Under the pieces are notes generated by a model. The model did no database searches and had not been told where the DNA came from. It saw only the letters and a program-made list of their open reading frames with translations. A stretch of DNA of 64,000 nt, from NCBI GenBank assembly GCA_904420585.1, contig CAJFVX010000021.1, positions 19,319-83,318 of the forward strand, written 5' to 3'. This stretch comes from Candidatus Howiella intestinavium (GTDB taxonomy: Bacteria; Bacillota; Clostridia; Oscillospirales; Acutalibacteraceae). Position numbers and translations under genes: made by a program. Below, in pieces: positions 20,865 through 46,889 of the stretch. Each line of letters opens with the position of its first letter. Position 1 is the first letter of the stretch.

Positions 20865-20877
20865 AATCCGCTTTGCG

Positions 20878-25215: not shown

Positions 25216-25235
25216 GGGGGCGCGGCAGCGCCCCC
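25216..25235 (+). terminator. GC hairpin after the 1184-aa gene (no clear T-tract)
   Basis: gggggcgc-ggca-gcgccccc. Possibly a weak or partial terminator. Confidence 0.35.
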
Positions 25236-25283
25236 ATGACCTGCAACGTATCTTAATCTGAAATTTTAGGAGGAAAACAGATT

Positions 25284-26471: not shown

Positions 26472-26589
26472 GCGGGAGTCCGGGTAAAGCCTTGTATTTC
26501 CCCTTATGACCCAAGCATAATGAATACCGGGCGGCGCTTCGCGCTGCGGACGCGCCGCCCGATATCCTGCGCCGGCACGCCGGCAGGAT

Positions 26590-26618
26590 TTGCACAAAAG
26601 TGCATATATGATTATATT
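26590..26618 (+). promoter_or_regulatory. candidate promoter of the GH125/GH76 block with overlapping palindrome
   Basis: TTGCAC (26590-26595), 17-nt spacer, TATATT (26613-26618). The palindrome TGCAC-AAAA-GTGCA (26591-26604) overlaps the -35. Confidence 0.55.
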
Positions 26619-26635
26619 GCCGGGAGTGTTGTAAG

Positions 26636-27931: not shown

Positions 27932-27939
27932 AGCAAAGG

Positions 27940-29034: not shown

Positions 29035-29112
29035 GTTCCGTTTATTGGGCTTTATGCTCCGGGCATGGAGCGGTTGGTATATATTTTAAAATGAGGAAAA
29101 GGAGATTCAGCT

Positions 29113-30735: not shown

Positions 30736-30751
30736 AAGCATGTAAGCAAAA

Positions 30752-30812
30752 GGGTATTGTCCCGGGATACTGTTATCTCGGGACAATACCCAGGTTTATT
30801 CCTTTTTCTTTG
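30752..30812 (+). terminator. hairpin plus T-rich tract after GH76 paralog 2
   Basis: gggtattgtcccg-N14-cgggacaataccc followed by aggtttattcctttttcttt. Confidence 0.55.
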
Positions 30813-30846
30813 AGCGGCATTGAGATTTTGAAAGGGGTTATGCCTT

Positions 30847-32127
30847 CTGTTTAAAAAGATTACGGCAGCCAGTCTATCTGCCATTTTGGTATTGGGCGCT
30901 GCGGGCTGCGGTGCGGATACCGGTACGGAAAGTTCCAGCAGCGCATCTGCCGGAACCAGCACATCTACCGCTTCCTCTGTGGCGGATGTGGCCATAACCG
31001 ATTTTCAAAATTTCAATGGTTACGGCGACCGCGGCGACGCCATTATGGAGTATTTTAGCCAGAGTTTTTGGAAAGCCGACGGCCGCATGAAGAGCGAACA
31101 GGCAAAAAGCGATTCGGTAACGCTCTGGGGCTATGCTTCCTACATGGAAGCCTGCGGTGAATGGCTGGCCCTGCATCCGGACGACGCCGAGGTAAAGGCC
31201 GAATATATAAAGGTTTTGGAGAATGTGGAGTATTACCGCACGGTATGGCGTACCGATGACCTGCAGGTCTATCAGTGCGTACCGGTAGAGAGCAAGGCCG
31301 AGTGCTTTTTTGATGACGACGTTTGGGTTGTGCTGGAGTTTATCCACGCCTATCAGCTCTTAGGAGAGCAAAAGTGGCTGGATAATGCCAAGGGAACCAT
31401 AGAGTTCTGCTATTCCGGCTGGGATGACAAGCAGGGCGGCGGCGTCTACTGGAAGGAAGATGATGTGGGCACGGAGAACGCCAGCAAAAATACCTGCATC
31501 AACGCCCCCCTGGCCCTGGCCTCCGCCGAACTCTACGAGATCACCCAGGATCAGCAGTATCTGGACTGGGCCATCCGGCTGTACGATTGGACCAAGGCGA
31601 CCCTGATGGATCCCAAGGATTCCCTGATGTGGGATAATATTATGGCGGATTCGGGCAGTGTGACCCGGACGAAATGGACTTACAATACGGGCAATATGAT
31701 CGCCTCGGCCGCCATGCTCTATAAAATCACCGGCCAGGAGTCCTACCTCACCGATGCCAAGACCATGGCGGAATCCGCCTATACAACCTTTGGCACCGAA
31801 GTGGTTAAGGATGATCCTGCCCAATCCTATTACATCGCCGGCGAGTCCAATCCCTGGTTCCAGTCATCTTTGTTGAAGGGCTACATAAAGCTGTACGAAG
31901 TGGACAGTTCCAACGCAACCTATGTAAAGAGTTTTTTGACCGCGTTGGCCTACGCCTGCTCCAAGAATAAGGATTTTCGCGGATTCCTGGACTCGGATTG
32001 GAAAACGCGGGATGAGGTCGGCGTTATCACCAACCCGGATCTGCTGAACCAGTCGGGTAACGCCCGGGTGCTGCTCATGCTGCAAAACTGGAAGAACGCC
32101 CATCCGGACGCCCTGGGCCAGGCTTAA
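30847..32127 (+). CDS. GH76 alpha-1,6-mannanase lipoprotein, paralog 3 (start codon uncertain)
   Basis: The frame opens at 30832. CTG 30847 (9 nt after GAAAGGGG) gives the lipoprotein signal MFKKITAASLSAILVLGAAGC. The track start TTG 30886 would remove that signal. FFDDDVWVVLEFIHAY, GGVYWKED...KNTCINAP, YNTGNMIASAAMLY. Confidence 0.8.
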   Translation: MFKKITAASLSAILVLGAAGCGADTGTESSSSASAGTSTSTASSVADVAITDFQNFNGYGDRGDAIMEYFSQSFWKADGRMKSEQAKSDSVTLWGYASYMEACGEWLALHPDDAEVKAEYIKVLENVEYYRTVWRTDDLQVYQCVPVESKAECFFDDDVWVVLEFIHAYQLLGEQKWLDNAKGTIEFCYSGWDDKQGGGVYWKEDDVGTENASKNTCINAPLALASAELYEITQDQQYLDWAIRLYDWTKATLMDPKDSLMWDNIMADSGSVTRTKWTYNTGNMIASAAMLYKITGQESYLTDAKTMAESAYTTFGTEVVKDDPAQSYYIAGESNPWFQSSLLKGYIKLYEVDSSNATYVKSFLTALAYACSKNKDFRGFLDSDWKTRDEVGVITNPDLLNQSGNARVLLMLQNWKNAHPDALGQA

Positions 32128-32177
32128 TCAGGCATCCGCCGAGGAAATTCGGTTGATGATAAAAATTTTAGAAAGGG

Positions 32178-33563
32178 ATGTTATGCGTGAACAAGAAAAG
32201 AATCATCAGCGCCCTGCTGTGCGCCGCTATGATTGTCAGCGCGGGAGTTATGGCTTCTTCCTGCGGCGACAACGACGGCACCCCCAGTGGCAGCACTGAC
32301 AGTTCCGACGAATGGGTTCTTGCTGACAAGAACGTCACTATGTGGGGAGGCTTCGGCGAGGACTACTACGAGAATTTCAAGCGGGATAATCCGGATATCA
32401 ATCTGAATTATGCCACCTCCTCTGACAACAGCCTGGTGACCCTGGCTGCGGCAATCCAGTCGGGCAACCAGCCGGATATGTTCTACACCAACAATGCCGC
32501 CAATGCGCCTCTGGGCGATGCGGTGGGCCGTGACCTGCTGCTGCCCCTGGAAGGCTATTTTGACCGGGATCCCAACTATAAGTGGGAGGATCTGCCCGAA
32601 TGGTATGATATGTTTGTCAAGTATACGGGCAACGATGGGCAGGATCATATTTACGCCGTCTACACCGACGTGTCGGTAGCCTGCTTGGTCTGGAACAAGG
32701 ATATGTTTGAAGCCAATGGCCTGGATCCCGATAAGCCGCCGACAACCTGGTCTGAAATGCAGACCATGGCTTCTCAGCTGAACAAAACCGACTCCAACGG
32801 CATGCTGAGCCAGGCCGGTTTCACCTCCTATAACTGGTGGTTCCAGCATTGGCGCCTGACCTATGGCACGACCTATCAGGATCCCCTGACTGGCGAGCCC
32901 AACATCAATACCCCCGAGATGCAGAATGTCATGAACTTCTTAAAGTCCTTCCCCGAATCCTTCGGCGGCGCCGACCGGCTGCCCGAGACGGTGAACTGGG
33001 GCGCAGGCAACGTGGGTATGGCTATTGCCGATACGGGTTATTCCCAGAACATGGTTAATGACTTTGAGACCGGTATCGCCATTATGCCCAAGCCTGACGA
33101 TAAGGAAGGCGACCAGGTGGTTGCCGGTTATGCCTGGCAGTGGTACGGCGTACCCAAGGGCTGTAAGAACCCCGACGGCGGCTGGACGGTAGCCCGCTGG
33201 GCTGTGACCGGCGGCTGCGCCGGCGTACAGGCCCGTGCCGCTCTGGAGAATCCCGAGACCTGGGTGCCTGTCTATCAGGTACACAAGCCCTCCAAGCAGG
33301 AACTGTTCGATCGGTATCTGGAAGGCTGCCGGGAGGATATCCAGGAAATCCTGATGAAGCGCGAGGAGATCTTTGATCAGATTTCCATTGCCCGCCCGGT
33401 TAATGCGCCTATCAATGCCAACTGGGAAAGCGCTCTGGAAACCAAGTGCGTTGAGATCATCAACGGCGAAACGACTGTTACCGATGGTTTGGATTATATT
33501 CAGAAAGTTGGTATGCAGTTGTACGAGGATTATCGTTCGGATGTACTGGGCATAACCGAATAA
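32178..33563 (+). CDS. ABC sugar transporter substrate-binding lipoprotein (family 1)
   Basis: Signal with Cys (VMASSCGDN). SBP_bac_1-type features are PDMFY, MPKPD, and a mid-protein YAWQWYGVPKGCKNPDGGW segment. Confidence 0.85.
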   Translation: MLCVNKKRIISALLCAAMIVSAGVMASSCGDNDGTPSGSTDSSDEWVLADKNVTMWGGFGEDYYENFKRDNPDINLNYATSSDNSLVTLAAAIQSGNQPDMFYTNNAANAPLGDAVGRDLLLPLEGYFDRDPNYKWEDLPEWYDMFVKYTGNDGQDHIYAVYTDVSVACLVWNKDMFEANGLDPDKPPTTWSEMQTMASQLNKTDSNGMLSQAGFTSYNWWFQHWRLTYGTTYQDPLTGEPNINTPEMQNVMNFLKSFPESFGGADRLPETVNWGAGNVGMAIADTGYSQNMVNDFETGIAIMPKPDDKEGDQVVAGYAWQWYGVPKGCKNPDGGWTVARWAVTGGCAGVQARAALENPETWVPVYQVHKPSKQELFDRYLEGCREDIQEILMKREEIFDQISIARPVNAPINANWESALETKCVEIINGETTVTDGLDYIQKVGMQLYEDYRSDVLGITE

Positions 33564-33597
33564 GTGCCAGTTGCAGTATATGCGACAGTGAAGGTGG

Positions 33598-33628
33598 CGC
33601 CCGGCCACGATGGCCGGGCGTCCCTTTT
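33598..33628 (+). terminator. rho-independent terminator after the SBP gene
   Basis: cgcccggcca-cga-tggccgggcg (10-bp stem) followed by tcccTTTT. Confidence 0.75.
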
Positions 33629-33661
33629 AGCGGTAGAATCTGTAAGTGAGGAGAAAAGTTT

Positions 33662-34918
33662 ATGAAACACGGGCAGCCCTGCGGCACCCCTGTTGTGGGA
33701 AGACTGCATCGCTGGTTGTGCCTGCTATTGGCTTTGGCGCTGTCGGCGACAGCGCTGGCTTCCTGTGAACAGACCAGCGCGTCGGAAGGCGGCGCTTCCT
33801 TACAGGCCGGTTCTGCTGCCAGCACGGTACAAATCTATATTGACGAGGAGAAGGCCCCAGCCCTTCGGGCCGATTCCGAGAAGGGGATTTGGGAAAAGCG
33901 GGCGGATGCCACCCAGGCTTTTATGCGGGAAAACTTCTTCGGCGCCTATGATATGTACCAAAACAAATACCCCCTCACAAGACAGAGGGACAATGCGACC
34001 TTTCACTACTGGATCCAGGCGCAGGTTTTGGATTCTATTGTGGACGCCTACATCCGCACAGGCGATGCAGTCTATGCCCAGCGGGCCAAGGAACTGATCG
34101 CTGCGGTGAAAAAGCGGAATGGCAATCATATTACCAATGATTTATACGACGATATGGGATGGATGGCCAACGCGGCCTTCCGGCTGTATCAGGCCACAGG
34201 CGACCAAGATTTGTGGAGCGACATCGACCTTTTATACCGGACCATTGCCGACGGATGGAATGAGGCCAGCGGCGGCATTGCCTGGCGGCGGGATCAAATG
34301 TACTACCGCAATTCCCCGTCCAACGGCCCTGCCTGCATTCTGGCGGCCCGGCTGTACCAGCATACCGGGGAGCAGGAATATTTGGACATGGCGCTCCGGA
34401 TTTTTGACTGGTGGACGGAAACCCTGGTGGATCCGGAAACCGGACTGGTTTGGGACGGCATCAACCGGCAAATGGACGGAAAGATAGACAAGAACTGGCA
34501 GTTTACCTATTGCCAGGGGGTATACATTGGCGCCTGCGTGGAATTATACCGCATCACCAATGAACAGGATTATATTGACAAGGCGGTGCGGACCGCCGAT
34601 TACGCGCTGGATACCATGCTGGAGAGCGGGATTCTCCGTTCCGAAGGTGGCGGGGACGGCGGCGCCTTCAAGGGCATATTCTGCCGGTATCTGACGCAGC
34701 TGATATTGACTACATCGGTCAATCGGGAACTGTACTGCAGGGTGTTGGAGAGGAACGGGGAAGCGCTTTGGGCGAATATCCCCAGCGAGGAGGAGCCGAT
34801 TTGCAGCGAAAAATGGAGCGACAAGCCCGGCAAATCGGTAGAACTCCAGGTGCAGTCCAGCGGGCTGGCCCTGCTGGAAAGTTTGGCCGTTTTAAATAAA
34901 ATGGGTTATATTTCATAA
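33662..34918 (+). CDS. GH76 alpha-1,6-mannanase lipoprotein, paralog 4 (divergent)
   Basis: RBS GAGGAG. Lipobox LASC. LYDDMGWMANAAFRLY, GGIAWRRDQ...SPSNGPA, TYCQGVYIGACVELY. Confidence 0.85.
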   Translation: MKHGQPCGTPVVGRLHRWLCLLLALALSATALASCEQTSASEGGASLQAGSAASTVQIYIDEEKAPALRADSEKGIWEKRADATQAFMRENFFGAYDMYQNKYPLTRQRDNATFHYWIQAQVLDSIVDAYIRTGDAVYAQRAKELIAAVKKRNGNHITNDLYDDMGWMANAAFRLYQATGDQDLWSDIDLLYRTIADGWNEASGGIAWRRDQMYYRNSPSNGPACILAARLYQHTGEQEYLDMALRIFDWWTETLVDPETGLVWDGINRQMDGKIDKNWQFTYCQGVYIGACVELYRITNEQDYIDKAVRTADYALDTMLESGILRSEGGGDGGAFKGIFCRYLTQLILTTSVNRELYCRVLERNGEALWANIPSEEEPICSEKWSDKPGKSVELQVQSSGLALLESLAVLNKMGYIS

Positions 34919-34975
34919 ACCCTTCTTGACGAGCCGTATATTTATGCGGTATACTTTATAAAAGGTTATTTTTGC

Positions 34976-34999
34976 CCGGCGGTACATACCGCCGGATTT
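34976..34999 (+). terminator. hairpin after GH76 paralog 4
   Basis: ccggcggt-acat-accgccgg followed by aTTTg. Confidence 0.45.
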
Positions 35000-35015
35000 G
35001 CCTCTTTACGACAAA

Positions 35016-35044
35016 TTACGGATTTTGTGCAAAATGCGCATAAT
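35016..35044 (+). promoter_or_regulatory. candidate promoter of the seven-gene transporter operon
   Basis: TTACGG, 17-nt spacer, CATAAT. The spacer contains TTTTGTGCAA (35023-35032). An alternative TTGACG-N18-TATACT lies at 34926-34955. Confidence 0.4.
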
Positions 35045-35196
35045 CCATTGTCGAATTTTTATGTATTCGCCATGCGGGCGGGTGCAGTTGCCAGAAAATT
35101 ACATCGCTGCTTCTTTTTGGAAGGCTTACGGCCGGTCAAATGGGGGAACAGACGGTAATGCATAACGGCGATTGTAAAACAGGAAAGGGGATTTGT

Positions 35197-38100
35197 ATGG
35201 AATTCAGGAAAAAAGGCTACATGCGTCTGGCCGCTTTGCTGCTGACATTCTGTCTTCTGACTACGGGCGCAGGCGTAAACGCCTGGGCTGCGGAAGGGGA
35301 CGAAGACGGCGCCGCGGCGGCTGCGGATGCGGGGACGGGGACGTCAGGGCTGAACTCGGCCCTGGAGGAACTGTTGCAGCATGAGGATTCCGGCGAGGAT
35401 GAAAACGCCGCAGAGGGCACCGATCTGGAATACCTTGACGTGGAAGCCACATATGAATCGATCGAGAGCTACGGCCTGACTGAGGCGGATACCATCACCC
35501 TGCAGGCCGACGCCGCTGCCAAGACGGACGGGACTGCGCCGACCTTTACCCAGACCGACCCTGCCTATGAGGGTGGGATGGCTGTTTTGTCGGACGAAGC
35601 CACCGGCTCTTTGTCCTGGCAGGTGACCGTGCCCAAGACGGGACTATACGACATCCATATCGACTACCTCCCTACCGTGGATGATAAATCGGACATCCAA
35701 CGGAAGATTGCTTTCGACGGGGCGCTGCCCTTTGACGAAAGTGGTAACATCGGCTTCCTGCGGGCCTGGACCGAAGAGGCCGACCCGGTGCTGGATGCCA
35801 ACGGCGATGAAATCAAGCCCAAGCTGGCCCAGGTGGCCGGATGGGATACCAATAAAGTGACCGACGTAGACGGCATGATTGAGACCCCCTTCCGCTATCT
35901 GCTGACCGCCGGCACCCATACCCTTACGCTGGAGTATGTCAACGCCGACATGTATGTGGGCGATATCCGGCTGGTTCCCTCAGAAGAATACAAGACCTAC
36001 GCCGAGGTTAAGGCGGAATATGAAGCCAACGGCTACACCGAGTATACGGGCGAGCCTGTCCGCCGGGAGGGCGAGGAGTCGGAATACCGCTCCAGCCAGA
36101 TCCTCCGCCGGGAGGCCAATTCCGATCCCGGCACCACCCCGTATGTCCGCGGCCATGTGAAGCTGAATACCATCGGCGGCTACAACTGGCGCGCAGGCAA
36201 CCAGCTGGTGGAATGGGTCATCGACGTGCCGGCAGATGGGCTGTATAAGCTGAATATGCGCATCTTCCAGAACCACGGCGAAGGCCTGAACGTACATCGG
36301 CAGATCACCATTGACGGCGAGGTGCCCTTTGCAGAGGTGGCCGCCTACGCATTTGGCTATTCCTCCAAGTGGCAGAACGAGACCATCTGCGACGCCGAGG
36401 GCAATCCCTACCTTTTCTATCTGACGGCGGGACAGCATGTGCTGGGCGTGCAGGTAAAGATGGGCGATTCCGCAGACGTCATCAACGGGCTGCTGGATAT
36501 CAATAATGATATGTCCCAGCTTATCCGGAATATCACCCGGGTGACCGGTTCGGAGCCCGACGCCAACTTCGACTATCAGCTGGAGGCCAAGGTGCCTTCC
36601 CTCATGGAGCAGATGACCGACCTGCGGGATCGGTACCGCTATTATGTGGACTTCCTGACCACCCATTCCCGCAAGGTCCCCACCCTGGCCAACTCCCTGA
36701 ATACGGCGGCGGATCAGCTGGACTACCTGATTGAGCGGCCCAAGAAAATCCCCGCCAAGCTGGATGAGCTGACTACAACCCAGACCAGCGTCTCCACCTG
36801 GTATTACAACATCCAGGACCAGCCTATGATGATCGACTATGTGCAGTTTGTGGCGCCGGCCGAAGAGGTCAAGATGCCCAAGAGCAGCATCTGGGAAAAG
36901 ATCGCCGGCACCTGTGTGAACTTTGCGCTTTCCTTTGTCAAGGATTACGACAGCGTTATGTATGTGAGCACCACCGGTGAAGAACTCTTCGAGGGTGAAG
37001 CGCTGGACGTCTGGGTGGCCCGCAGCAAGGAAATGTGTGAAATCATCCAGCAGATGGCTTCGGAGGAATTCACCCCCGAATCCCATATCGGCGTTGCGGT
37101 CAACGTGCTCCCCAGCGGTTCGGTGGGCGCCGTCGGCAGCGTCAGCCCCCTGATGCTGGCGGTTATCTCGGGCAATGTGCCGGATATCGCCCTGGGCAGT
37201 GACTCCCAGACCCCTGTGGAGCTGGCCATCCGCGGCGCGGCCTATGACCTGAAGAATTTTGAGGGGTATGACGAGGTGGCGTCCTGGTTCCTGCCCGGCG
37301 CCCTGGAGCCTATGTCCTATCAGCAGAAGGATGCGTCCGAGCCCGGCCAGTACGCCCTGCCCGAAAACATGGACTTTAAGGTCATGTTCTACCGGACGGA
37401 TATCATGGAGGAGATCGGCGCCAAGGTGCCCGATACCTGGACGGAACTCTACAACGAGGTCCTGCCCATCCTGGATCAGAACGGCATGATGTTCTATATG
37501 GCGTCGGATTACGCCCCCTTCCTCTTCCAGCTGGGCGGCGACTACTACAACGAGGACAAGACCGCCACGGCTTTGGACAGCGATGTAGCTTACCAGGCCT
37601 TCCTGCAGTGGACCCGGAACTACACGGTCTACGACTTTGAGACCACCGCCGATATCTACAACCATTTCCGTATCGGCGATATCCCGCTGGTCATCGGCGG
37701 CTATAATGATTACCTGAAGATTATGTACGCGGCGCCTGACCTGTACGGCCGCTGGATGATTGCCCCCATCCCCGGCACCGAGCAGGAGGACGGCACCATC
37801 GACCGGACGGCCGGCGGCGCCTCCACCACCCTGATGATGTTCACCGATTCCAAGCGGAAGGAAGATGCCTGGGAGTTCGCCAAGTGGTGGATGTCCGCGG
37901 ATGTGCAGTACAACTTCTCCACCGAGGTGGAAGCCACCATGGGCCAGGAGGCCCGTTGGAATTCGGCCAATGTGGAAGCCTTCTTCCGGCTGCCCTGGCA
38001 GAACGACCATGTGCCGGTCTTCCAGGAGATTTTCAGCCAGTTTGAAAACCAGCCCAATGCGCTGGGCGGCTATTACACCGCGCGTAACGTAACCAACGCC

Positions 38101-38232
38101 TGGACGCGCGTAGTCATGAATGACATGAATCCCCGGAAATCCTGGGAGCAGGCCATTGACGATATTTCCAACGAGATGCTGCGCAAGCAGATTGAGTACG
38201 GCTTTACCACGGAGGAAGAAGCGTACGAATAA
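35197..38232 (+). CDS. 1011-aa secreted solute-binding protein with two N-terminal CBM6/35-like modules
   Basis: ATG 7 nt after GGAAAGGGG. Type-I signal (VNAWA/AEG) and an acidic linker. Two beta-sandwich modules (GLYDIHIDY...YVGDIRL; GLYKLNMRI...VLGVQVKMG). The C-terminal ~450 aa is SBP-like (PDIALGS, YALPENMDFKVMFYRTD, PDTWTELY, AWEFAKWWMS). Confidence 0.85.
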   Translation: MEFRKKGYMRLAALLLTFCLLTTGAGVNAWAAEGDEDGAAAAADAGTGTSGLNSALEELLQHEDSGEDENAAEGTDLEYLDVEATYESIESYGLTEADTITLQADAAAKTDGTAPTFTQTDPAYEGGMAVLSDEATGSLSWQVTVPKTGLYDIHIDYLPTVDDKSDIQRKIAFDGALPFDESGNIGFLRAWTEEADPVLDANGDEIKPKLAQVAGWDTNKVTDVDGMIETPFRYLLTAGTHTLTLEYVNADMYVGDIRLVPSEEYKTYAEVKAEYEANGYTEYTGEPVRREGEESEYRSSQILRREANSDPGTTPYVRGHVKLNTIGGYNWRAGNQLVEWVIDVPADGLYKLNMRIFQNHGEGLNVHRQITIDGEVPFAEVAAYAFGYSSKWQNETICDAEGNPYLFYLTAGQHVLGVQVKMGDSADVINGLLDINNDMSQLIRNITRVTGSEPDANFDYQLEAKVPSLMEQMTDLRDRYRYYVDFLTTHSRKVPTLANSLNTAADQLDYLIERPKKIPAKLDELTTTQTSVSTWYYNIQDQPMMIDYVQFVAPAEEVKMPKSSIWEKIAGTCVNFALSFVKDYDSVMYVSTTGEELFEGEALDVWVARSKEMCEIIQQMASEEFTPESHIGVAVNVLPSGSVGAVGSVSPLMLAVISGNVPDIALGSDSQTPVELAIRGAAYDLKNFEGYDEVASWFLPGALEPMSYQQKDASEPGQYALPENMDFKVMFYRTDIMEEIGAKVPDTWTELYNEVLPILDQNGMMFYMASDYAPFLFQLGGDYYNEDKTATALDSDVAYQAFLQWTRNYTVYDFETTADIYNHFRIGDIPLVIGGYNDYLKIMYAAPDLYGRWMIAPIPGTEQEDGTIDRTAGGASTTLMMFTDSKRKEDAWEFAKWWMSADVQYNFSTEVEATMGQEARWNSANVEAFFRLPWQNDHVPVFQEIFSQFENQPNALGGYYTARNVTNAWTRVVMNDMNPRKSWEQAIDDISNEMLRKQIEYGFTTEEEAYE

Positions 38233-38271
38233 CCCCGGGTTCATTACATTAGGAAAAAAGGTGAGATGTAA

Positions 38272-39246
38272 GTGATTAGTAGCGCTAACACCAAGGTCAC
38301 CGGCGCAGGAGCGGCAGCGGTCGAGAAAAAGGCACCCAAGCCCAAGCGGAAGAATAAGCTGCTCAGCGGTTATGCCCGGGACAAAATTTCCGGCTACCTG
38401 ATGGCCGCCCCCTTTATCATCCTCTTTATCATCTTCATTGTTGTGCCGGTTATATGGAGTTTGGTCATCAGCCTGACCCATTACAACATCGTGCAGCCCA
38501 TGACCTGGGCGGGACTGGACAACTACAGGGACCTGTTTACCAACGACGACCTGTTCATTACCGCATGTAAAAATACCTTTACATATGCGATTATCGTGGG
38601 CCCTGTGGGATTCCTGATGTCCTTTATCTTCGCCTGGCTTATCAACCAGCTGAAGTTCCGCAACGCTTTCGCCATGGCCTTCTACGCCCCCTCCCTGACG
38701 GGCGCCACCGCCATGTCGGTTATCTGGCTGGTGCTTTTCTCCAGCGACCGGTACGGCTACATCAACGATAAGCTGATCAGCCTGGGGCTCATCAGTGAGC
38801 CGATTTTGTGGAATACCGACCCCACTTACATCATGCCGGTTATCATTATCGTAGCCCTTTGGAGCAGCTTGGGCCAGGGCTTCTTAACCAACCTGGCCGG
38901 TTTGAACAATATCCCGGTAGACCGCTATGAGGCGGCGCAGATCGACGGCATCCGGAACAAGTTCCAGGAACTCATCTACATCACCCTGCCTTCGGTCAAG
39001 CCGCAGCTGCTGTTCAACGCCGTTATGGGCATTGTGGGTGCGCTGGGCGTATTCGACCTGGCCACCGGTATCGCCGGCTTCCCCAGCCCCGACTATGCGG
39101 CCCACACCATCGTGGCCCATATGTACGACTACGCCTTCCTGCGTTTTGAGCTGGGCTACGCGTCTGCTATCGCGTTTATCCTGTTTGTACTGAACTTTGG
39201 GCTTGGCAGAATATTTATGAAAATATTCTCCTCGAAAGGCGAATAG
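38272..39246 (+). CDS. ABC sugar permease, MalF/UgpA-type (pair 1)
   Basis: 6 TM. EAA loop RYEAAQIDGIRNKFQELIYITLPSVKP. Confidence 0.92.
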   Translation: MISSANTKVTGAGAAAVEKKAPKPKRKNKLLSGYARDKISGYLMAAPFIILFIIFIVVPVIWSLVISLTHYNIVQPMTWAGLDNYRDLFTNDDLFITACKNTFTYAIIVGPVGFLMSFIFAWLINQLKFRNAFAMAFYAPSLTGATAMSVIWLVLFSSDRYGYINDKLISLGLISEPILWNTDPTYIMPVIIIVALWSSLGQGFLTNLAGLNNIPVDRYEAAQIDGIRNKFQELIYITLPSVKPQLLFNAVMGIVGALGVFDLATGIAGFPSPDYAAHTIVAHMYDYAFLRFELGYASAIAFILFVLNFGLGRIFMKIFSSKGE

Positions 39247-39257
39247 GGGGGACGACG

Positions 39258-40148
39258 ATGCAGGCAGTCAACGTAAAGAAAATCAAAGTCAGAAAGTTCA
39301 GCTGGAAAAAGATCACCTTCGGCCGCGTGCTTTTCTACCTCATCATGATCGCCCTGGCCCTCTTCTTTCTCCTCCCGCTGATTTACATGGTGTGTACGGC
39401 CTTCAAGCCGCTGGATGAGTTGTTCCTCTTCCCGCCCACCTTCTTTGTGCGCCATCCAACCATGCAGAACTTCACCGACCTGGTGGCCACGCTGGACAGC
39501 AGCACCGTGCCCTTCACCCGGTACATTTTCAACAGCGTACTGGTGACGGTGGCTTCGGTTGTGGGCACGGTTATCGTCTGTTCCATGGGCGCCTTTGTGG
39601 CGGAGAAGCTGAGCCTGCGGGGCATGAAGCTCTTTGGCCAGATCGTCACCTACGCCCTGATGTTCTCGGTGCCGGCCGGCCAGATCCCCATCTACATCAT
39701 TATCAACAACATGGGCATGCTGGACACCTACTGGTCCCTCATCATTCCCAAGCTGGCTACTCCTATGTACTTCTTCCTCTATCAGCAGTTTGTTTCCCAG
39801 GTTCCCAACGAACTGCTGGAAAGCGCCAAGCTGGACGGCTGCGGCAACTTCCGGATCTTCATGAAGATTGTCCTTCCCATGACCAAGGCTGTTATCTCCA
39901 CCATCGTGGTTTTCGCCTTCGTGGCCAACTGGAACGACAGCTTCTCGGCCCTTATCTATATCAATAAGCAGGCCATGAAGACCGTCCCGCTGATTCTGAA
40001 TACCATCGGTTCCGGCGTAGGTACAGTGGCCCGGGCGGGCGCCCAGTCGGCGGCTGTATTCATCACGACCCTGCCGTCGATTCTGATTTCGGTCCTGATG
40101 GAGCGGAATATCTTAAAGGCCATGGCCTACTCCGGTATTAAGGGTTAA
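39258..40148 (+). CDS. ABC sugar permease, MalG/UgpE-type (pair 1)
   Basis: EAA loop LLESAKLDGCGNFRIFMKIVLPMTKA. 11-nt gap to the previous gene. Confidence 0.92.
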   Translation: MQAVNVKKIKVRKFSWKKITFGRVLFYLIMIALALFFLLPLIYMVCTAFKPLDELFLFPPTFFVRHPTMQNFTDLVATLDSSTVPFTRYIFNSVLVTVASVVGTVIVCSMGAFVAEKLSLRGMKLFGQIVTYALMFSVPAGQIPIYIIINNMGMLDTYWSLIIPKLATPMYFFLYQQFVSQVPNELLESAKLDGCGNFRIFMKIVLPMTKAVISTIVVFAFVANWNDSFSALIYINKQAMKTVPLILNTIGSGVGTVARAGAQSAAVFITTLPSILISVLMERNILKAMAYSGIKG

Positions 40149-40161
40149 GGGGGGGAAGACA

Positions 40162-42288
40162 ATGAATTGGAGTAAATTGAAACAAATCAGCCTCATATTT
40201 CTTGTCTTCATCCTCATGGCCGGCATGTTCGGCATGCAGGCCAGCGCCTACGATGAGCAGAACTATGTGCTGGACGCCGACGGCTACCAGCTGCCTATTC
40301 CGGTAACCTACAACGCCGAATCGGTCACCCGCTACCTCAGCGACGAGGCCGGGCAGCTCAGCAGCCCTACGGATATCTTTATCACCAAATCCGACCGGAT
40401 GTATATTGTGGACGGCGGCAACAACCGCATCGTCAGCATGAACTGCGACGGCACGGATGTGAAGACCTTCAGCAATTTCAGCGGCGAAACCCTTTCCAAT
40501 CCCAACGGCATCTATGTCTATGAGGATTCGGGGGACATGCTGATTGCCGATACCGACAACGGCCGCCTGCTGCTGACGGATAAGGACGGCAACCTGAAAA
40601 AGATTTACACCCAGCCGGAATCCGAGCTGTACGATAAGACCTATCCCTTCAAGCCCCTGAAGGTGGCGGTCAACCTTATCGGTCAGATCTATGTCATCAA
40701 CACCGATGACTACCACGGTTTTGTGGTGCTGGACGAGGCGGGCGAACTGCGGGGCTATATGGCGCCGACCAAGGTCCCCTTTGACCTGGTGTACAGGCTG
40801 GCCTCCATCTTCGCCACCGAGGAGCAGCTGTCCCGTATGGAGCAGCCCATGCCCCCGGTGCACACCAACCTGTTTATCGATGACGACAACTATATTTACA
40901 CCACCACCGGCCGGGGTGCGGACGAGGGGCAGCTGATGGTATTCTCCCCCGTGGGCAAGAATATCTATCCCTTTACCGGCGCCTTCGGCGAGGAGCGTAC
41001 CGACTACGTCCTGCGGCATTATAACGTCAATGCCGACTCCACCGAGCAGAACTTTGTGGACGTGGTTGTGGACGACGGCGGCATCGTGAGCATTCTGGAT
41101 TCGGTCACCGGCCGTATCTACCAGTATGACAGCGAGGGCAACAACCTGACCGTCTTCGGCGGCGTGGGCGTCTGGGAAGGCCGCTTCCAGGGCGCCTCGG
41201 GCATGGCCATGGACAGCCAAGGCAATATCTACGTTGTGGACCAGACCCAGTCCTCTCTGCATAAGTTTGTCCCCACCCAGTTCACCAATCTCATACATAC
41301 TGCCCTGGGCCTGTATTACGACGGCAAGTATGATGAGGCTGTGGAATACTGGGATCAGGTTTTGGAACTGAATCCCAACTACCCCATGGCCCACGTGGGA
41401 CGGGGCAATGCCTATCTGCGGAACGACCAGTACGAAGAGGCCATCGAAGAGTTCCGTCTGGCCGACAACAAGGCGGGCTATTCGGATGCCTTTGATGAAA
41501 ACGAACTGCAGTTTGTCCGGCAGAACTTTGCCTTTGTCCTCCTGGCCATCATTGCCATTGTAGTTCTTGTGGTGCTGCTGATTATGTACCTGCACAAGCG
41601 GTATAAGCAGACCTATGAGAAACAAAGCCGCATCAAGTGGTTCAACAACCGAGGGCGGCTGCAGATTCTGCTGGGATGTATTTTCGATCCCAACGAGGGC
41701 TTCCGCAACATTCGGCGGCACCGGCAGGATTACGATATTGTCATCCCGCTGATCATCTATGCGCTGATTTTTGTGGCCAAGTGCTTCTCCTTGTTTGTAA
41801 CCCATTACCCCTTCCAGGCCACCGACATCGCCCGGGTGAACTTGGCGCAGGAGACCCTTATGATATTCCTGCCGCTGCTGACCTGGGTTGTGGGCAACTA
41901 TCTGGTCACTACCATCCGCAGCGGTGAGGTAAAGATGCGGGAGGTTTTTAGTGCCTCGGCCTATTCCATGCTGCCCTATGTCATCATTACCATCCCGCTG
42001 GCCTGCGTATCCAACGTCATGTCCCTGAGCAGTTCGGGCATTTACAACGGCATTACCGTGATCATGTGGGTCTGGATTGGCATCCTCTTCTTTGCCAGCA
42101 CCATGTCCATGAACTCGTACCGGTTCTTTGAGACGGTGGGAATTATCATCATCGCCCTGTTTGCCTGTGTGTTCATGTGGGTCGTCTTCGCCATGATCTT
42201 CATGCTGGGCAATGAGGTGGTTTCCTTCTTCACCGGCATCTTTGAGAACTGGCAGGTATATTTCAGCATGCAGGGAGGTAACGTGTAA
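40162..42288 (+). CDS. NHL-repeat beta-propeller / TPR / Yip1-domain membrane protein (708 aa)
   Basis: Signal peptide. NHL-like repeats (PTDIFITKSDRMYIVDGGNNRIV, PNGIYVYEDSGDMLIADTDNGRLL, GMAMDSQGNIYVVDQTQSSLHKF). TPR (YYDGKYDEAVEYWDQVLELNPNYPMAHVGRGNAYL). A TM segment is followed by a multi-TM Yip1-like C-terminal domain. Confidence 0.8.
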   Translation: MNWSKLKQISLIFLVFILMAGMFGMQASAYDEQNYVLDADGYQLPIPVTYNAESVTRYLSDEAGQLSSPTDIFITKSDRMYIVDGGNNRIVSMNCDGTDVKTFSNFSGETLSNPNGIYVYEDSGDMLIADTDNGRLLLTDKDGNLKKIYTQPESELYDKTYPFKPLKVAVNLIGQIYVINTDDYHGFVVLDEAGELRGYMAPTKVPFDLVYRLASIFATEEQLSRMEQPMPPVHTNLFIDDDNYIYTTTGRGADEGQLMVFSPVGKNIYPFTGAFGEERTDYVLRHYNVNADSTEQNFVDVVVDDGGIVSILDSVTGRIYQYDSEGNNLTVFGGVGVWEGRFQGASGMAMDSQGNIYVVDQTQSSLHKFVPTQFTNLIHTALGLYYDGKYDEAVEYWDQVLELNPNYPMAHVGRGNAYLRNDQYEEAIEEFRLADNKAGYSDAFDENELQFVRQNFAFVLLAIIAIVVLVVLLIMYLHKRYKQTYEKQSRIKWFNNRGRLQILLGCIFDPNEGFRNIRRHRQDYDIVIPLIIYALIFVAKCFSLFVTHYPFQATDIARVNLAQETLMIFLPLLTWVVGNYLVTTIRSGEVKMREVFSASAYSMLPYVIITIPLACVSNVMSLSSSGIYNGITVIMWVWIGILFFASTMSMNSYRFFETVGIIIIALFACVFMWVVFAMIFMLGNEVVSFFTGIFENWQVYFSMQGGNV

Positions 42289-44849
42289 TGAGGAAAAGAT
42301 TAGTTACCGGACTGCTGGCGGCGGCTTTATCGGTTAACCTTCTGGCGGCGACGGCTCTGGCCGAACCCGCCCCGGCCGACGCCGCCGGCGCTGCGGCTGT
42401 CACCGAGCCCACCACCACCCAGGTGTCCTCTGATTTTGAGCTCATGGCCTCCAACGACCAGGCCGAGCTCTATGCCAGCGAGGAACTGGGGGCCGTGGCT
42501 GTCAAGGATCTGCGCAGCGGCTTTATCTGGTATTCCAACGTCCCCAGTGATACCTATGACCGCACCGGCCTGCAGGCCGCTCAGAGCCATCAGCTGGATT
42601 CGCTGGTTGTCCTGACCTATACCGAGCTGAATAACAACGACGCTTCCACTACCACCACGCCCATCAATGATATGGAGCCCGAGATTTCCACCGAGAAAAT
42701 CGATAACGGCGTCCGTATCAACTATCGGGTGGACGATATCAACCTGGAGATGAGCGTAGAGGCGGTTCTGGACGGCGGCGCTTTGGTGCTGTCCGTCCCC
42801 AACGACCGCATCCTGGAGGGCGAAGGCACGGTTGACCGGATGAACAATTATATCGAGAATATCGAGGAGTTCATCAACTATGCCAACGAGGCCCTGGATG
42901 AGGTGGAAAGCTACGACGTCCGGGGCACGGGATCGGATATCCGGAAATCCCGTTCCCGGCTCAAGGAGCTGCAGGGCATCGTGGACGATCTGACCTCGGT
43001 GGTCGGCGTGGCCGCCGCCCAATCCCAGGCCAAGATCATCCTGGAGGATGAACTGAAAACCTTTATGTGCGGCGGTACCAGCACCGTGGGTATTTACGGC
43101 CGCGTACAGAATGCGGACGTCCCCTCCAGCGTAAAGAGCACCTGGAGCGGCATGCAGATGGAGATCGAAAACTGCAGCTATGATTTCGGCCTGCTGGCCT
43201 CCATCAAGTACGGCGGTATTGTCAGCCTGGAGCTGGCGCCCAACCTGGGTGCCGCGGCCGATACCGAAGAGGGATATGTTTTTTATCCCGACGGATCCGG
43301 CGCCCTGACCTACAATACGGCCAGCCACGGATCCATGGCCGAAGTATACGAAGCCAGCCTGTACAGCGATCAGGATGTGGATATGTCCTGGGAAAACAAC
43401 CGGGATTCCACCGGGCTCAAGCGGGCGATGCTGCCGGTTTTCGGCGTCAAGAAGAACAGCCACGCCTACGTGGCCATTGTGGAGGACGGGGACACCGACG
43501 CTAGCCTGCGGTTTGTTCCCAGCGGCAACAATGTCAACCTGAACCGGGTAAGCGCTTCTTTTGTTTACCGCAATGAGGTGCAGGTCACCTCTTCCAGCCA
43601 GTACGCCACCGGCGTGGCCACCATCTACAACAAGGAACGAATGGAGACCCAGCCCAAAGTCCGCTATGTTTTCCTGGACGGGGAGAATGCCGACTACAGC
43701 GGCATGGCCAATACCTATCGGGACTACCTGCTGGAAAAGGGCCAGCTGGAAAAGAGCGACCTGGTCACCGATGAGCTGCCTTTGGCCATCGATATTTATG
43801 GTTACACCCTCAAGTCAATGCTTTTCTTCAAGCAGGTCATGCCCCTTTCCACCTTTGAGGAAATGAACCAGATTGTCAACGAGTTGAACGACGCGGGGAT
43901 TACCAACACCTTCCTGCATATTCAGCAGTGGGATCGCAACGAGGATCCCAACGGCTTCAAGGTGCCCGGCAAACTGGGCGGGGCCGACGGGCTCCGGCAG
44001 CTGGTGGAGAATACCCGCAATATCGGCGGCCATGTTTTCCTGCAGACCGATATGGTGGACGCCGATACGGATGAGCACAGCATCAGCAATTCCCGTCTGG
44101 CCTACGACAACAACCTGAAGATTTACGAGTACCAGACCATGTGGCTGAAGCTGTTCTCGCCCGTATATGTGCAGAGCCAGATGGCCTCTTATCTGAAGGA
44201 TGTGGACAGCCTGGGCAATCCCGGCGTGGGCCAGTACCGGATGGGCTCCATGATCTACAATGACTACAATACCCGCAACGCCGCCACCCGCGACGATACC
44301 GCCCAGATCTGGAACGATATCTATCGCACCACGCAGGAGCAGACCGAGACGACCTCCTACTCCGGCAACGCCTATCTGCTGAATGGGACCGACTGGCTGC
44401 AGGATATCCCCATGAGCTCCACGGGCTATATCTTCTCGGATGAGTCCATCCCCTTCTACCAGATGGTGGTGCACGGCCTTATCCCCTACAGCGCCAAGCC
44501 CTTCAACCACTTCTACGACGCCGACCGGGAAAAGCTGCAGACCATTGAGTACGGCGCCATCCCGCTGTACAAAATCACCTACCGGGATTCCACCGACCTG
44601 CGCGAGCTGTTCTACGGCTTCACCACCCCCTATTCCTCGGTGAAGGACGGCATGATCGAGGTATACAACGAGATGAACAGCCGGCTGAGCCACCTTTATA
44701 CCCAGTATATCGTGGATCATCAGCGGGTGACCGACGATGTGGTGGTGGAAACCTTCAGCGGCGGGCAGAAGCTGTACATCAACTACTCGGAAGAAGACTA
44801 CACCCTGGACGGCGTAACCATTCCCGCCCTGGATTATGTGGTACAGTAA
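42288..44849 (+). CDS. 853-aa secreted protein of unknown function (possibly DUF5696-like, glycoside-hydrolase-like)
   Basis: TAATG overlap with the previous gene. Signal peptide LLAATALA/EP. Barrel-like segments are NTFLHIQQWDRNEDPNGFKVPGKLGG and IPFYQMVVHGLIPYSAKPFN. The family assignment comes from memory only. Confidence 0.7.
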   Translation: MRKRLVTGLLAAALSVNLLAATALAEPAPADAAGAAAVTEPTTTQVSSDFELMASNDQAELYASEELGAVAVKDLRSGFIWYSNVPSDTYDRTGLQAAQSHQLDSLVVLTYTELNNNDASTTTTPINDMEPEISTEKIDNGVRINYRVDDINLEMSVEAVLDGGALVLSVPNDRILEGEGTVDRMNNYIENIEEFINYANEALDEVESYDVRGTGSDIRKSRSRLKELQGIVDDLTSVVGVAAAQSQAKIILEDELKTFMCGGTSTVGIYGRVQNADVPSSVKSTWSGMQMEIENCSYDFGLLASIKYGGIVSLELAPNLGAAADTEEGYVFYPDGSGALTYNTASHGSMAEVYEASLYSDQDVDMSWENNRDSTGLKRAMLPVFGVKKNSHAYVAIVEDGDTDASLRFVPSGNNVNLNRVSASFVYRNEVQVTSSSQYATGVATIYNKERMETQPKVRYVFLDGENADYSGMANTYRDYLLEKGQLEKSDLVTDELPLAIDIYGYTLKSMLFFKQVMPLSTFEEMNQIVNELNDAGITNTFLHIQQWDRNEDPNGFKVPGKLGGADGLRQLVENTRNIGGHVFLQTDMVDADTDEHSISNSRLAYDNNLKIYEYQTMWLKLFSPVYVQSQMASYLKDVDSLGNPGVGQYRMGSMIYNDYNTRNAATRDDTAQIWNDIYRTTQEQTETTSYSGNAYLLNGTDWLQDIPMSSTGYIFSDESIPFYQMVVHGLIPYSAKPFNHFYDADREKLQTIEYGAIPLYKITYRDSTDLRELFYGFTTPYSSVKDGMIEVYNEMNSRLSHLYTQYIVDHQRVTDDVVVETFSGGQKLYINYSEEDYTLDGVTIPALDYVVQ

Positions 44850-44864
44850 GAGGAGGCGAACGGA

Positions 44865-45824
44865 ATGAATAATACAAGCGCACCGGTCAAAGCCGCCAAG
44901 CCTCCCAAGGCGAGGAAGCCCCGCAAGTCGCGGCTCCGCGCCCGGGAAAATCTGTGGGGGTATGTCTTTACCGCACCCTGGGTACTGGGCTTCTGCTTCT
45001 TCTTCGCCTATCCCATTGTCTATTCCTTGATTCTGGCCTTTGGCCGGATTACCGACCTGACCAACTTCTCTACCCAGTTCGTGGGCTTTGAGAACTTCAT
45101 CAACGCCTTTACCCGCGACGAGCAGTTCCTGCCGCTTTTGGGACAGTCCCTGGGCGATATGCTGATTAAAACCCCGGTGGTCGTGGTTTTCTCCCTGTTT
45201 ATCGCCATTCTGCTGAACCGGAACATCAAGGGGCGCGGCCTCTTCCGCGTCTTCTTCTTCCTGCCGGTTCTCCTGGGTACCGGTATCGTGCTGAGCACCA
45301 TCAACGGCAGCCTGGGCAACGATTCGGCCCAGCTGGCCCAGGAGGCGGCCCAGCAGGCCGCTACCGGCACGGATATGCAGGGCTATTCCTCCTCGGTTGG
45401 CCTGACGGTTATGCTGCTGGGGCCGGATCTGGCCCTGATACTGGAGGATATCCTGACCGTGGTTACCGACGTGCTTTGGATGTCGGGTATCCAGATCGTT
45501 ATCTTCCTGGGCGCCCTGCAGACCATCCCCTCCTCCTACTATGAGGCGGCCTACTGCGACGGCGCTTCCGAATGGGAGAAGTTCTGGAAGATCACCCTGC
45601 CCCTGACCATGCCCAATATCCTGCTGAACACGGTTTATACCATGATTGACTACCTGAGCAGTACGGACAACGAGGTGGTCACCTACATCCGGGATACGGG
45701 CCTTACAGGCGGCAACGTGACCTTCGGCAGCGCCATGGGCTGGGTTTACTTCCTGACGTCCGGTATCATCATCCTGATTGTCTTCCTGATTCTGAAACGG
45801 TTTACGTTCTATGGAGATGAATAA
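44865..45824 (+). CDS. ABC sugar permease, MalF/UgpA-type (pair 2)
   Basis: RBS GAGGAGG. EAA loop YYEAAYCDGASEWEKFWKITLPLTMP. Confidence 0.92.
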   Translation: MNNTSAPVKAAKPPKARKPRKSRLRARENLWGYVFTAPWVLGFCFFFAYPIVYSLILAFGRITDLTNFSTQFVGFENFINAFTRDEQFLPLLGQSLGDMLIKTPVVVVFSLFIAILLNRNIKGRGLFRVFFFLPVLLGTGIVLSTINGSLGNDSAQLAQEAAQQAATGTDMQGYSSSVGLTVMLLGPDLALILEDILTVVTDVLWMSGIQIVIFLGALQTIPSSYYEAAYCDGASEWEKFWKITLPLTMPNILLNTVYTMIDYLSSTDNEVVTYIRDTGLTGGNVTFGSAMGWVYFLTSGIIILIVFLILKRFTFYGDE

Positions 45825-45863
45825 GCAGATGAAAATCGACAGAAAAGAGAAGGAGGCAATCGT

Positions 45864-46778
45864 ATGACCGGAAAGCTTTCGCTGAAAACCCAGAGCCGTC
45901 TGGCGACTGCGAAAAAGTATTCGGGCAAGTTTATCATAAACCTGATTATTTACATCCTGCTGATTGAATTTGCCTTTACGTTCCTGTATCCCTTCATCTA
46001 TATGATCCTGAACTCCTTAAAGTACGACTACGAGGTCATCGACGCGACCAAGCAGTGGATCATTACGGATATCAACTGGAACAACTATGTAAGCGCCTTT
46101 GAGGGACTGGATTATATGAAGTCCCTGGTGAATACCCTGATTGTGGTGCTGGGCAGCACCCTGGGCCATATCATCTCCTGCTCCCTGGCTGGATACGGCT
46201 TCGCCCGGTTTAAGTTCAAGGGCAGCAGCCTGATGTTCGGTTTGGCCATGCTGAACCTGATTATCCCCTCGGCCCTGATGATTATGCCCCTGTACATTCA
46301 GTTCTCCAAGTTCCACATGATGGGCACCTACCTGCCGATTATCCTGCCCTCTTTCTTCGGCTTCGGGCTGAAGGGCGGCATCTACATCTTCCTGTTCCGG
46401 CAGTTCTTCAAATCCCTGCCGGTATCCTACGAGGAAGCCGCCAAAATCGAAGGCTGCTCCATGCTGCAGGTTTTTGTCCGCATTATGCTCCCCATCGCGC
46501 GGACGACCATCCTGGTGGTCTTTATCCTCTCGGTGGTGTGGCACTGGAACGACTACTTTGAACCGGCGACCTATCTGTCGGGCAACCTGCAGATTCTCAG
46601 CCAGAAGATATCGTCGGTGGCCAGCGCTTCAGCTACGGTAACGTCGGCTGTGGGCGCCAGCGTCAATATGACGGCTCTGGCGGCCTGCGTGCTGGTTATC
46701 CTGCCGCTGCTGATTGTCTACTTCATCTTCCAGAAGCAATTCATGGAAGGCGTGGAGTTCAGCGGCCTGGCCAACTAA
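45864..46778 (+). CDS. ABC sugar permease, MalG/UgpE-type (pair 2)
   Basis: RBS GAAGGAGG. EAA loop SYEEAAKIEGCSMLQVFVRIMLPIART. Confidence 0.92.
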   Translation: MTGKLSLKTQSRLATAKKYSGKFIINLIIYILLIEFAFTFLYPFIYMILNSLKYDYEVIDATKQWIITDINWNNYVSAFEGLDYMKSLVNTLIVVLGSTLGHIISCSLAGYGFARFKFKGSSLMFGLAMLNLIIPSALMIMPLYIQFSKFHMMGTYLPIILPSFFGFGLKGGIYIFLFRQFFKSLPVSYEEAAKIEGCSMLQVFVRIMLPIARTTILVVFILSVVWHWNDYFEPATYLSGNLQILSQKISSVASASATVTSAVGASVNMTALAACVLVILPLLIVYFIFQKQFMEGVEFSGLAN

Positions 46779-46791
46779 AGGACTTTGATGC

Positions 46792-46830
46792 AAAAACTCC
46801 CGGATGGCTTTCGCCGTCCGGGAGTTTTTC
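46792..46830 (+). terminator. rho-independent terminator closing the seven-gene operon
   Basis: actcccgga-N12-tccgggagt followed by TTTTC, 14 nt after stop 46778. Confidence 0.8.
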
Positions 46831-46889
46831 TGCCCGCCTGTTATGGCGGCAGGGAAGAGGGGCGCTTGCGGCGGGACACCCGGCCGCCC

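Follow-up and report, generated by a model that had tools for sequence, protein, structure and literature searches.

A stretch of 64,000 nucleotides (nt) of the Candidatus Howiella intestinavium genome (assembly GCA_904420585.1, contig CAJFVX010000021.1, positions 19,319 to 83,318 of the forward strand; hereafter the window, within which all coordinates are given) carries an operon that encodes a giant solute-binding protein (SBP), two ATP-binding cassette (ABC) permease pairs and, between these pairs, an NHL-TPR-Yip1 protein and a DUF5696 protein. The operon lies throughout on the + strand, where seven co-directional open reading frames (ORFs) span 35197-46778 with gaps of 39, 11, 13, -1, 15 and 39 nt, the negative value denoting a 1-nt TAATG overlap; re-derivation returned exactly the ORF coordinates and gaps of an earlier first-pass annotation. 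Judged by gene content and order in other genomes, this operon is one copy of a widespread and fixed eight-function module of monoderm glycan degraders. Its features are as follows (protein lengths in amino acids, aa):

34926..34955, +, promoter-like site TTGACG-18-TATACT, within the gap of 279 nt 5' of the operon
34960..35196, +, structured 5' leader including the hairpin CCGGCGGUACAUACCGCCGG (fold z -3.8 against shuffles)
35197..38232, +, giant binding protein, 1011 aa (Pfam SBP_bac_1)
38272..39246, +, permease F1, MalF/UgpA-type, 324 aa (BPD_transp_1; UgpA/GlcT-like)
39258..40148, +, permease G1, MalG/UgpE-type, 296 aa (BPD_transp_1; UgpE/GlcU-like)
40162..42288, +, NHL-TPR-Yip1 protein, 708 aa (Pfam NHL, TPR and Yip1)
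42288..44849, +, DUF5696 protein, 853 aa (PF18952)
44865..45824, +, permease F2, 319 aa (BPD_transp_1, E 3e-9)
45864..46778, +, permease G2, 304 aa (BPD_transp_1, E 8e-16; UgpE-like)
46790..46833 (about), +, intrinsic terminator (-31.9 kcal/mol, z -7.2, followed by U5)

DUF5696 motifs were searched in one genome per GTDB species, which gave at least 554 confirmed loci, of which the best 80 were annotated with the window proteins; five loci found via other proteins bring the annotated set to 85. The giant SBP, F1, G1, NHL/TPR, Yip1, DUF5696, F2 and G2 are complete in 69 of the 80 loci, and the remaining 11 end at contig ends with the expected genes present up to the cut. The same module is found in the five loci reached via other proteins, around the most distant DUF5696 members (~25% identity), and around an NHL homologue in Lachnospiraceae bacterium YSD2013 (28% identity) whose discovery did not rely on DUF5696. 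The first-pass annotation had taken the gene combination for a conserved, non-random one, a view that would fail if homologues of the NHL-TPR-Yip1 and 853-aa proteins were not syntenic with permeases elsewhere; synteny holds in 80/80 DUF5696 loci as well as around the independent NHL homologue.

Carriers belong to the Paenibacillaceae (Paenibacillus, Cohnella, Gorillibacterium), to the Lachnospiraceae (including Butyrivibrio and Acetatifactor) and to the Ruminococcaceae/Oscillospirales, with further occurrences in Limnochordales and in one Spirochaetales and one Anaerolineae metagenome-assembled genome (MAG). Cultured representatives include Lachnospiraceae bacterium YSD2013, Butyrivibrio sp. 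MC2013 and many Paenibacillus and Cohnella strains. Rearrangements are rare and keep all parts: F1 is relocated behind G2 in two loci (L005, L057), two blocks are swapped in a third so that SBP-F1-G1 follows G2 (L011), and in a fourth (L058) F1 and G1 are separated by an inserted 599-aa gene. The module genes are tightly spaced here and among called genes elsewhere. Median identity to the window protein is 49% for F1, the most conserved part of the module, 44% for G1, 40% for the SBP C-domain, 37% for F2/G2, 33% for the SBP N-part, 31% for NHL, 29.5% for DUF5696 and 27.5% for Yip1. These comparisons show that all parts of the module have been inherited together across phyla. The module, which is large and does not vary in content, occurs in at least 554 species-level genomes of gut Lachnospiraceae/Oscillospirales and soil Paenibacillaceae, and none of its NHL/TPR, Yip1 and DUF5696 accessory proteins has a known function. 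Two MAGs carry two module copies on different contigs (L004/L022 in DAOSDD01, L055/L075 in CAKTXU01), as expected if the copies were dedicated to different glycans.

All four permeases score over the PF00528 (BPD_transp_1) cut-off and the EAA...G...LP signature is legible in each, so that Pfam, NCBIfam and the translations agree with the earlier assignment of two MalF/MalG-type pairs with EAA loops; together with a family-1 SBP, such permeases are the components of a CUT1 importer. Identity is 26% between F1 and F2 and 24% between G1 and G2, and in every locus each permease is nearest its positional counterpart, with a median margin of 130-280 bits. Because of this low identity and of positional orthology everywhere, F1/F2 and G1/G2 are separate orthologous groups, the duplication ancient and both pairs retained. 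A MalK/MsmK-type (CUT1) ATPase is absent from the operon, from the 64-kb window and from the module in the 85 loci. The sole Walker A/ABC site of the window, at ~5608, belongs to an ABC-2 exporter and adjoins an ABC-2 membrane protein; the earlier remark that no ATPase lies inside the operon holds, for the CUT1 type, across the whole window. CUT1 systems of Firmicutes usually take their ATPase in trans (e.g. MsmK/MsmX), and an MsmK/MsmX-type ATPase acting in trans is presumed here.

In the giant SBP, Pfam places SBP_bac_1 at residues 616-904 (E 7e-20), bearing out the family-1 solute-binding domain that had been read in the C-terminal part of the 1011-aa protein. An AlphaFold2 (AF2) model (mean predicted local distance difference test, pLDDT, 86.6) starts with a hydrophobic helix at 4-22 and a disordered acidic linker of ~50 aa (23-74), continues with two beta-sandwiches at about 100-261 and 288-421 and a four-helix bundle at 425-540, and ends with the SBP domain at about 600-1000. 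Foldseek matches the protein to oligosaccharide SBPs (target-normalized TM-score, TMt, 0.7-0.8, best 0.81), among them binders of sophoro-oligosaccharides, cycloisomalto-oligosaccharides, maltodextrin and acarbose. The SBP domain swamps such whole-protein searches, and the N-terminus was read via a separate profile of residues 95-425. Pfam CBM_35 reaches 18.8 bits on the window protein, under its cut-off of 28; the family profile matches the CITase CBM35 with the second sandwich (E 3e-8) and the CBM35 modules of CsxA (E 4e-4) and of a C. thermocellum esterase (E 2e-3) with the first. Since this profile matches known CBM35s, and the model has two beta-sandwiches at these positions, the earlier reading of two CBM6/35-like modules holds, and by profile similarity the two N-terminal modules are CBM35-like.

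The window protein has no lipobox, which is unusual among Gram-positive SBPs, and 7 of 67 orthologues fit a loose lipobox pattern. In the model, the disordered linker suggests tethering by an N-terminal helix that stays uncleaved. The giant-SBP C-domains constitute a single family, all 2211 pairs being alignable with a median identity of 40%. In one metagenomic protein of 1467 aa (P0255), a GH26 mannanase domain is fused to the giant SBP.

The first-pass annotation had counted one binding protein for the two permease pairs. This count must be revised, as a conventional lipoprotein SBP is encoded 1.6 kb upstream of the operon, with a glycoside hydrolase (GH) family GH76 gene between:

32178..33563, +, conventional lipoprotein SBP, 461 aa, lipobox ...MASSC (SBP_bac_1, E 1e-20)

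With this second gene just upstream, the two permease pairs have two binding proteins at their disposal, and the 461-aa lipoprotein probably partners one of them. In an iterative SBP search across the 80 loci, with which a Pfam survey agrees, a co-directional extra SBP of 434-652 aa was found in the flanks of at least 46; its gene either precedes the giant SBP or follows G2, and in 42 loci the distance is at most 2.5 kb. As a group, the second SBPs are heterogeneous, only 26% of pairs aligning over 70% of their length. The pattern of conservation is consistent with a constant core and a specificity adaptor that varies, and leaves the assignment of SBPs to permeases unproven.

The 708-aa protein is composed, in order, of a signal peptide, an NHL propeller and two TPRs outside, a transmembrane (TM) helix at 456-474 and a 5-TM Yip1 domain. 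Pfam confirms all three parts of the composition originally proposed, NHL (PF01436) with 38 bits against a cut-off of 20, TPR also above its cut-off, and Yip1 (PF04893) with 39 bits against 28.6 and five or six hydrophobic segments at 526-679. The NHL family profile matches the PknD sensor propeller (E 9e-35) and the TRIM71 NHL domain (E 6e-41), and on this similarity the NHL part is a six-bladed propeller. In 27 loci NHL/TPR and Yip1 form one fused protein, and in 45 neighbouring genes encode them; of the 45 split NHL/TPR proteins, 44 have a C-terminal TM helix, and the separate Yip1 genes mostly encode 5 TM segments. What comes after the NHL/TPR ectodomain is always a TM helix and then a 5-TM Yip1 domain, in the same protein or from the next gene. 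One metagenomic protein of 799 aa (P0125) joins a G1-type permease to NHL/TPR, the NHL signal peptide being kept as an extra TM segment; it was considered as strong Rosetta-stone proof of contact and dropped, as it is a single contig and looks like read-through.

The 853-aa protein had been described as unplaceable in any characterised family. It is a full-length member of DUF5696 (PF18952; E 6.7e-144, 481 bits, the cut-off being 25.6, over positions 52-612 of the 612 in the profile), a family of 7217 clusters at 50% identity in a library of 1.84 billion proteins, 4119 of them at E <= 1e-30. A search of the PDB with the single sequence gave no match; the family profile and a fold search succeeded. 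The AF2 model, built from 50 homologues (pLDDT 88, predicted TM-score 0.87), consists of an N-terminal hydrophobic helix, a beta-sandwich with a helical insert of ~120 aa (181-304), a TIM barrel (about 499-765) and a C-terminal beta-sandwich. In Foldseek against the PDB its top match is DagB/ZgGH129, a GH129-like 3,6-anhydro-D-galactosidase (E 9e-31, TM-score 0.71 on the target), followed by the GH129 alpha-GalNAc-ase NagBb (E 2e-23) and then GH101, GH36 and GH31, which are more distant fold relatives; the top entries are 5opq, 8rzk and those beginning 5wz, at 11-12% identity. The succession of beta-sandwich, TIM barrel and beta-sandwich described for DagB (PMC5698469) and characteristic of GH129 is present in the DUF5696 model. 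The statement that no recognisable CAZyme (carbohydrate-active enzyme) lies inside the operon was thus wrong at the level of fold: because the model has the alpha-glycosidase fold of GH129, GH101 and GH36, the operon likely contains one.

The relationship with GH129 extends beyond fold to sequence, since the DUF5696 profile matches the NagBb sequence (E 1.8e-11) over ~170 residues that begin where the N-domain ends and extend through barrel strand 3, a stretch that takes in the start of the barrel and the conserved Trp/Gly motif there. Family-level sequence membership of CAZy GH129 is not reached, the profile match being partial, and DUF5696, if active, would most likely be a new GH family. 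Four acids are conserved among 81 orthologues, D335 in 78, D659 in 66, D718 in 68 and E754 in all. D659 lies 36-37 residues past the position aligned to NagBb W398, which is the spacing of the NagBb nucleophile D435 (D486 in DagB), and is a candidate nucleophile. DagB uses an Asp of its N-terminal domain in addition to the barrel acids (PMC5698469), and D335, in a YPDGSG motif, is a candidate counterpart. D718 is a candidate acid/base, a residue that could not be assigned from the GH129 comparison. The orthologues bear a TM anchor or a lipobox. Taken together, sequence and model make DUF5696 a probable alpha-glycosidase of a new family. A Clostridia MAG clade (L042, L044, L047, L048 and L077) has longer module proteins, with a giant SBP of ~1100 aa, NHL of ~600-620 aa and DUF5696 of ~900-1000 aa; at the candidate nucleophile position, the DUF5696 proteins of L042 and L048 have Asn (GNYK vs xDYN).

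In the window, a 25-kb locus of co-directional genes ends with the operon. It also encodes the 461-aa lipoprotein SBP, a 395-aa secreted protein with no family placed and the following genes (families from Pfam, localization from the N-termini):

21576-25130, +, secreted DUF5018/DUF4971 protein, 1184 aa, heading the mannan locus
26636-27931, +, GH125, no signal peptide
27940-29034, +, GH76, no signal peptide
29113-30735, 30886-32127 and 33662-34918, +, GH76 lipoproteins

DUF5018/DUF4971 domains are typical of Bacteroidota surface glycan-binding proteins, and the GH76/GH125 alpha-mannan locus is comparable to the MAN-PULs of Bacteroides. In terms of the predicted enzymes, the 25-kb locus is a coherent alpha-1,6-mannan route, with endo-mannanases outside, import, and both exo- and endo-acting enzymes in the cell. 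The mannan locus of the window lacks debranching enzymes of GH92, GH38 or GH99, and it is a speculation that DUF5696 would fill this debranching gap by removing alpha-linked side chains. The G+C content is 0.52-0.57 at 20000-36000 against 0.60-0.66 at 1-20 kb and 52-62 kb, and the mannan locus may have been acquired horizontally. Within it, the GH76 ORF called from TTG 30886 starts midway in a lipoprotein signal peptide (...KKITAASLSAILVLGAAGC); in 30829-30905 a good ribosome-binding site and an ATG at 30840 lie in another frame that stops after 4 codons, with a T3/A5 homopolymer run between, which looks like a 1-nt indel resulting from assembly error, pseudogenization or slippage.

Elsewhere the module adjoins GH10 and GH43 (as in YSD2013), GH26, GH38, GH30, GH53, GH51, GH106 or GH2, as well as pectinesterase, BNR/NanA/NanE (sialic-acid) genes and a GH67N/DUF4838 protein. 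The idea of a mannan-specific module was rejected because the flanking CAZymes differ between loci, and this variation of partners makes the module a general platform and not a mannan device. Of the mannan target put forward in the first-pass annotation, what stands is the coherent GH76/GH125 pathway next to the operon; its extension to the module family does not. Regulators near the module vary likewise (AraC, LacI, GntR, or a histidine kinase with an AraC-type response regulator), the nearest in the window being an AraC-type gene ~2.4 kb downstream on the opposite strand. A Gram-positive polysaccharide utilization locus (PUL) reportedly unites CAZyme, transporter and regulator in one locus; CAZymes and transporters stand together in the window locus.

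How large glycan fragments are held and imported in Gram-positive fibre degraders is far less understood than the Bacteroidota Sus paradigm. The building blocks of the module are known ones, i.e., CUT1 importer, CBM35, NHL propeller, Yip1 and GH129-like fold. With the CUT1 importers (MalEFGK2, MsmEFGK, UgpBAEC; Transporter Classification 3.A.1.1) it shares F/G pairs with EAA loops and an oligosaccharide SBP domain of Cluster-B type and, as in those of Firmicutes, the ATPase is probably shared and encoded elsewhere. In contrast with them, it locks two diverged pairs in one operon, its SBP has 1011 aa with two CBM35-like modules, a helical bundle and no lipobox, and NHL/TPR, Yip1 and DUF5696 sit between the permease pairs. 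Like the GH129 enzymes NagBb and DagB/ZgGH129 (PDB 5wzn, 5opq, 8rzk), DUF5696 has the three-domain fold (Foldseek E 1e-31 to 1e-22, TMt about 0.71-0.74), a profile link at the barrel start, an Asp at the nucleophile spacing and an N-domain Asp as in DagB. Unlike GH129, it gives no full-length sequence match, has no identifiable acid/base, is membrane-anchored, is always found in an ABC operon and, in this subfamily, carries the helical insert.

For the Yip1 part, the only bacterial precedent found is YknW, a Yip1-family protein of Bacillus that modulates assembly of the YknXYZ ABC complex (PMC4887032). As in YknWXYZ, a polytopic Yip1-family protein is encoded with an ABC transporter, and by analogy it may act on the importers of the module. 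However, YknYZ, with its membrane fusion protein, is an exporter of MacB type while the module has type I importers, and the module Yip1, unlike YknW, carries or adjoins an NHL/TPR ectodomain. Similar to Sus-like systems or utilisomes and to Gram-positive PULs, the module co-localizes a surface binder, a glycanase and a transporter, with variable CAZymes around a constant core. It differs from Sus-like systems in its ABC import without SusC/SusD or an outer membrane (Pfam finds no SusC or SusD domains in any module or flanking protein of the window), and, with a complex that we infer, the analogy is functional only. In the literature searched, neither DUF5696 nor this gene combination (as the first-pass annotation had stated) nor a Yip1/NHL partner of sugar importers was found described; most subscription papers were outside our reach, and this is an absence of evidence only.

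The non-permease parts of the module look membrane-anchored and outward-facing. We give roughly an even chance to the operon encoding a surface assembly, anchored in the membrane, for the capture, trimming and import of glycan fragments. In such an assembly, the giant SBP would be tethered by its N-terminal helix and disordered linker, its CBM35 modules would hold a polymer or a large oligosaccharide, and it would feed F1G1. DUF5696, anchored beside it, would remove alpha-linked residues, with D659 as candidate nucleophile, D718 as candidate acid/base and, in the manner of DagB, D335 from the N-domain. Substrate specificity would be set by the variable second lipoprotein SBP, which would feed F2G2, NHL/TPR-Yip1 would hold the parts together as YknW does for another ABC system, and a shared MsmK/MsmX-type ATPase encoded elsewhere would power both translocators. 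The cargo in this genome would be alpha-1,6-mannan fragments produced by the lipoprotein GH76s and finished inside by the GH76 without signal peptide and GH125. A bolder version is conceivable, though we doubt it: a monoderm counterpart of the utilisome, i.e., a stable machine at the cell surface, its two ABC translocons joined by an NHL/TPR scaffold with a Yip1 anchor. On the scaffold would then sit the tethered CBM35 receptor and DUF5696, as founding member of a new GH family, and the swappable second SBP and neighbouring CAZymes would retarget the machine across hundreds of soil and gut species.

Several points weigh against the surface assembly. The physical complex, the activity of DUF5696, the SBP-permease pairings and the ligands are all inferred; the AWA-AE site of the window giant SBP is potentially cleavable, and the N-terminal helix may be lost; the P0125 fusion is known from one metagenomic contig. 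Roughly 30-40% of loci have no adjacent second SBP, so the pairing of F2G2 with such a protein is not general, and the flanking CAZymes are possibly chance neighbours in CAZyme-rich genomes. The catalytic residues were mapped from spacing in a partial alignment of hidden Markov models, not from structural superposition; D659 is replaced by Asn in 12/81 orthologues, and no classical catalytic pair is invariant.

This replacement, with E754 as the sole invariant acid, also speaks for a non-catalytic DUF5696 and NHL propeller, making the system an importer with lectin-like binders, gates or cell-wall spacers for large ligands. NHL propellers such as that of PknD are indeed binding domains, and DUF5696 (29.5%) and Yip1 (27.5%) diverge faster than the permeases. 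We nevertheless hold this to be unlikely: D335, D659, D718 and E754 are kept in most orthologues, the nearest structures are all active exo- or endo-alpha-glycosidases, and the sequence-level link with GH129 covers the barrel start with its Trp/Gly motif. Still less probable is a role of the module in the envelope of the cell itself or in signalling, and not in nutrition, by recycling wall or capsule glycans or by coupling transport to sensing that controls CAZyme genes. The conservation of the giant-SBP C-domain and F1G1 (median 40-49%) despite differing CAZymes would fit a constant ligand, regulators are often adjacent, and PknD-like propellers are sensor domains; yet the flanks hold mostly catabolic CAZymes and sugar-catabolic enzymes, the CBM35 modules and the GH26 fusion indicate polysaccharide capture, and Pfam finds no signalling output domain in any module protein. 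Two ordinary, independent sugar ABC importers flanking unrelated genes, with no joint function, would account for the standard F-G layout of each pair, for the existence of a second SBP and for an ATPase in trans, as is usual for Firmicutes CUT1 systems. We regard this as very improbable given the same eight functions in the same order in 85 loci of several phyla, the survival of the parts through rearrangement, the maintained orthologous separation of the pairs, and genes that are tight or overlapping, including TAATG.

If the physical complex of the surface assembly is real, it would represent a new type of ABC-based uptake apparatus, with an enzymatic role for DUF5696, probably as a new GH family, and, outside YknW, a function for bacterial Yip1 proteins. 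The module is directly testable in cultured carriers whose substrates are clear.

As to expression signals, TTGACG-18-TATACT is the top sigma-70 match within 31.9-47.4 kb (10/12 positions), a consensus match only, and promoter-like sites across the region show no enrichment over shuffles. The leader hairpin, 8 bp and GC-rich, lies directly 3' of this site, and an Rfam search of 21-47.5 kb, including the operon leader, found no riboswitch or leader family. A ribosome-binding site, GGAAAGGGGA, precedes the giant-SBP start at 35197, and the terminator 3' of G2 folds as strongly as had been proposed. Outside the locus, and unrelated to the operon, 8087-12547 encodes a large surface CAZyme, a 1486-aa GH31 with two CBM6/CBM35 modules and Big_2.

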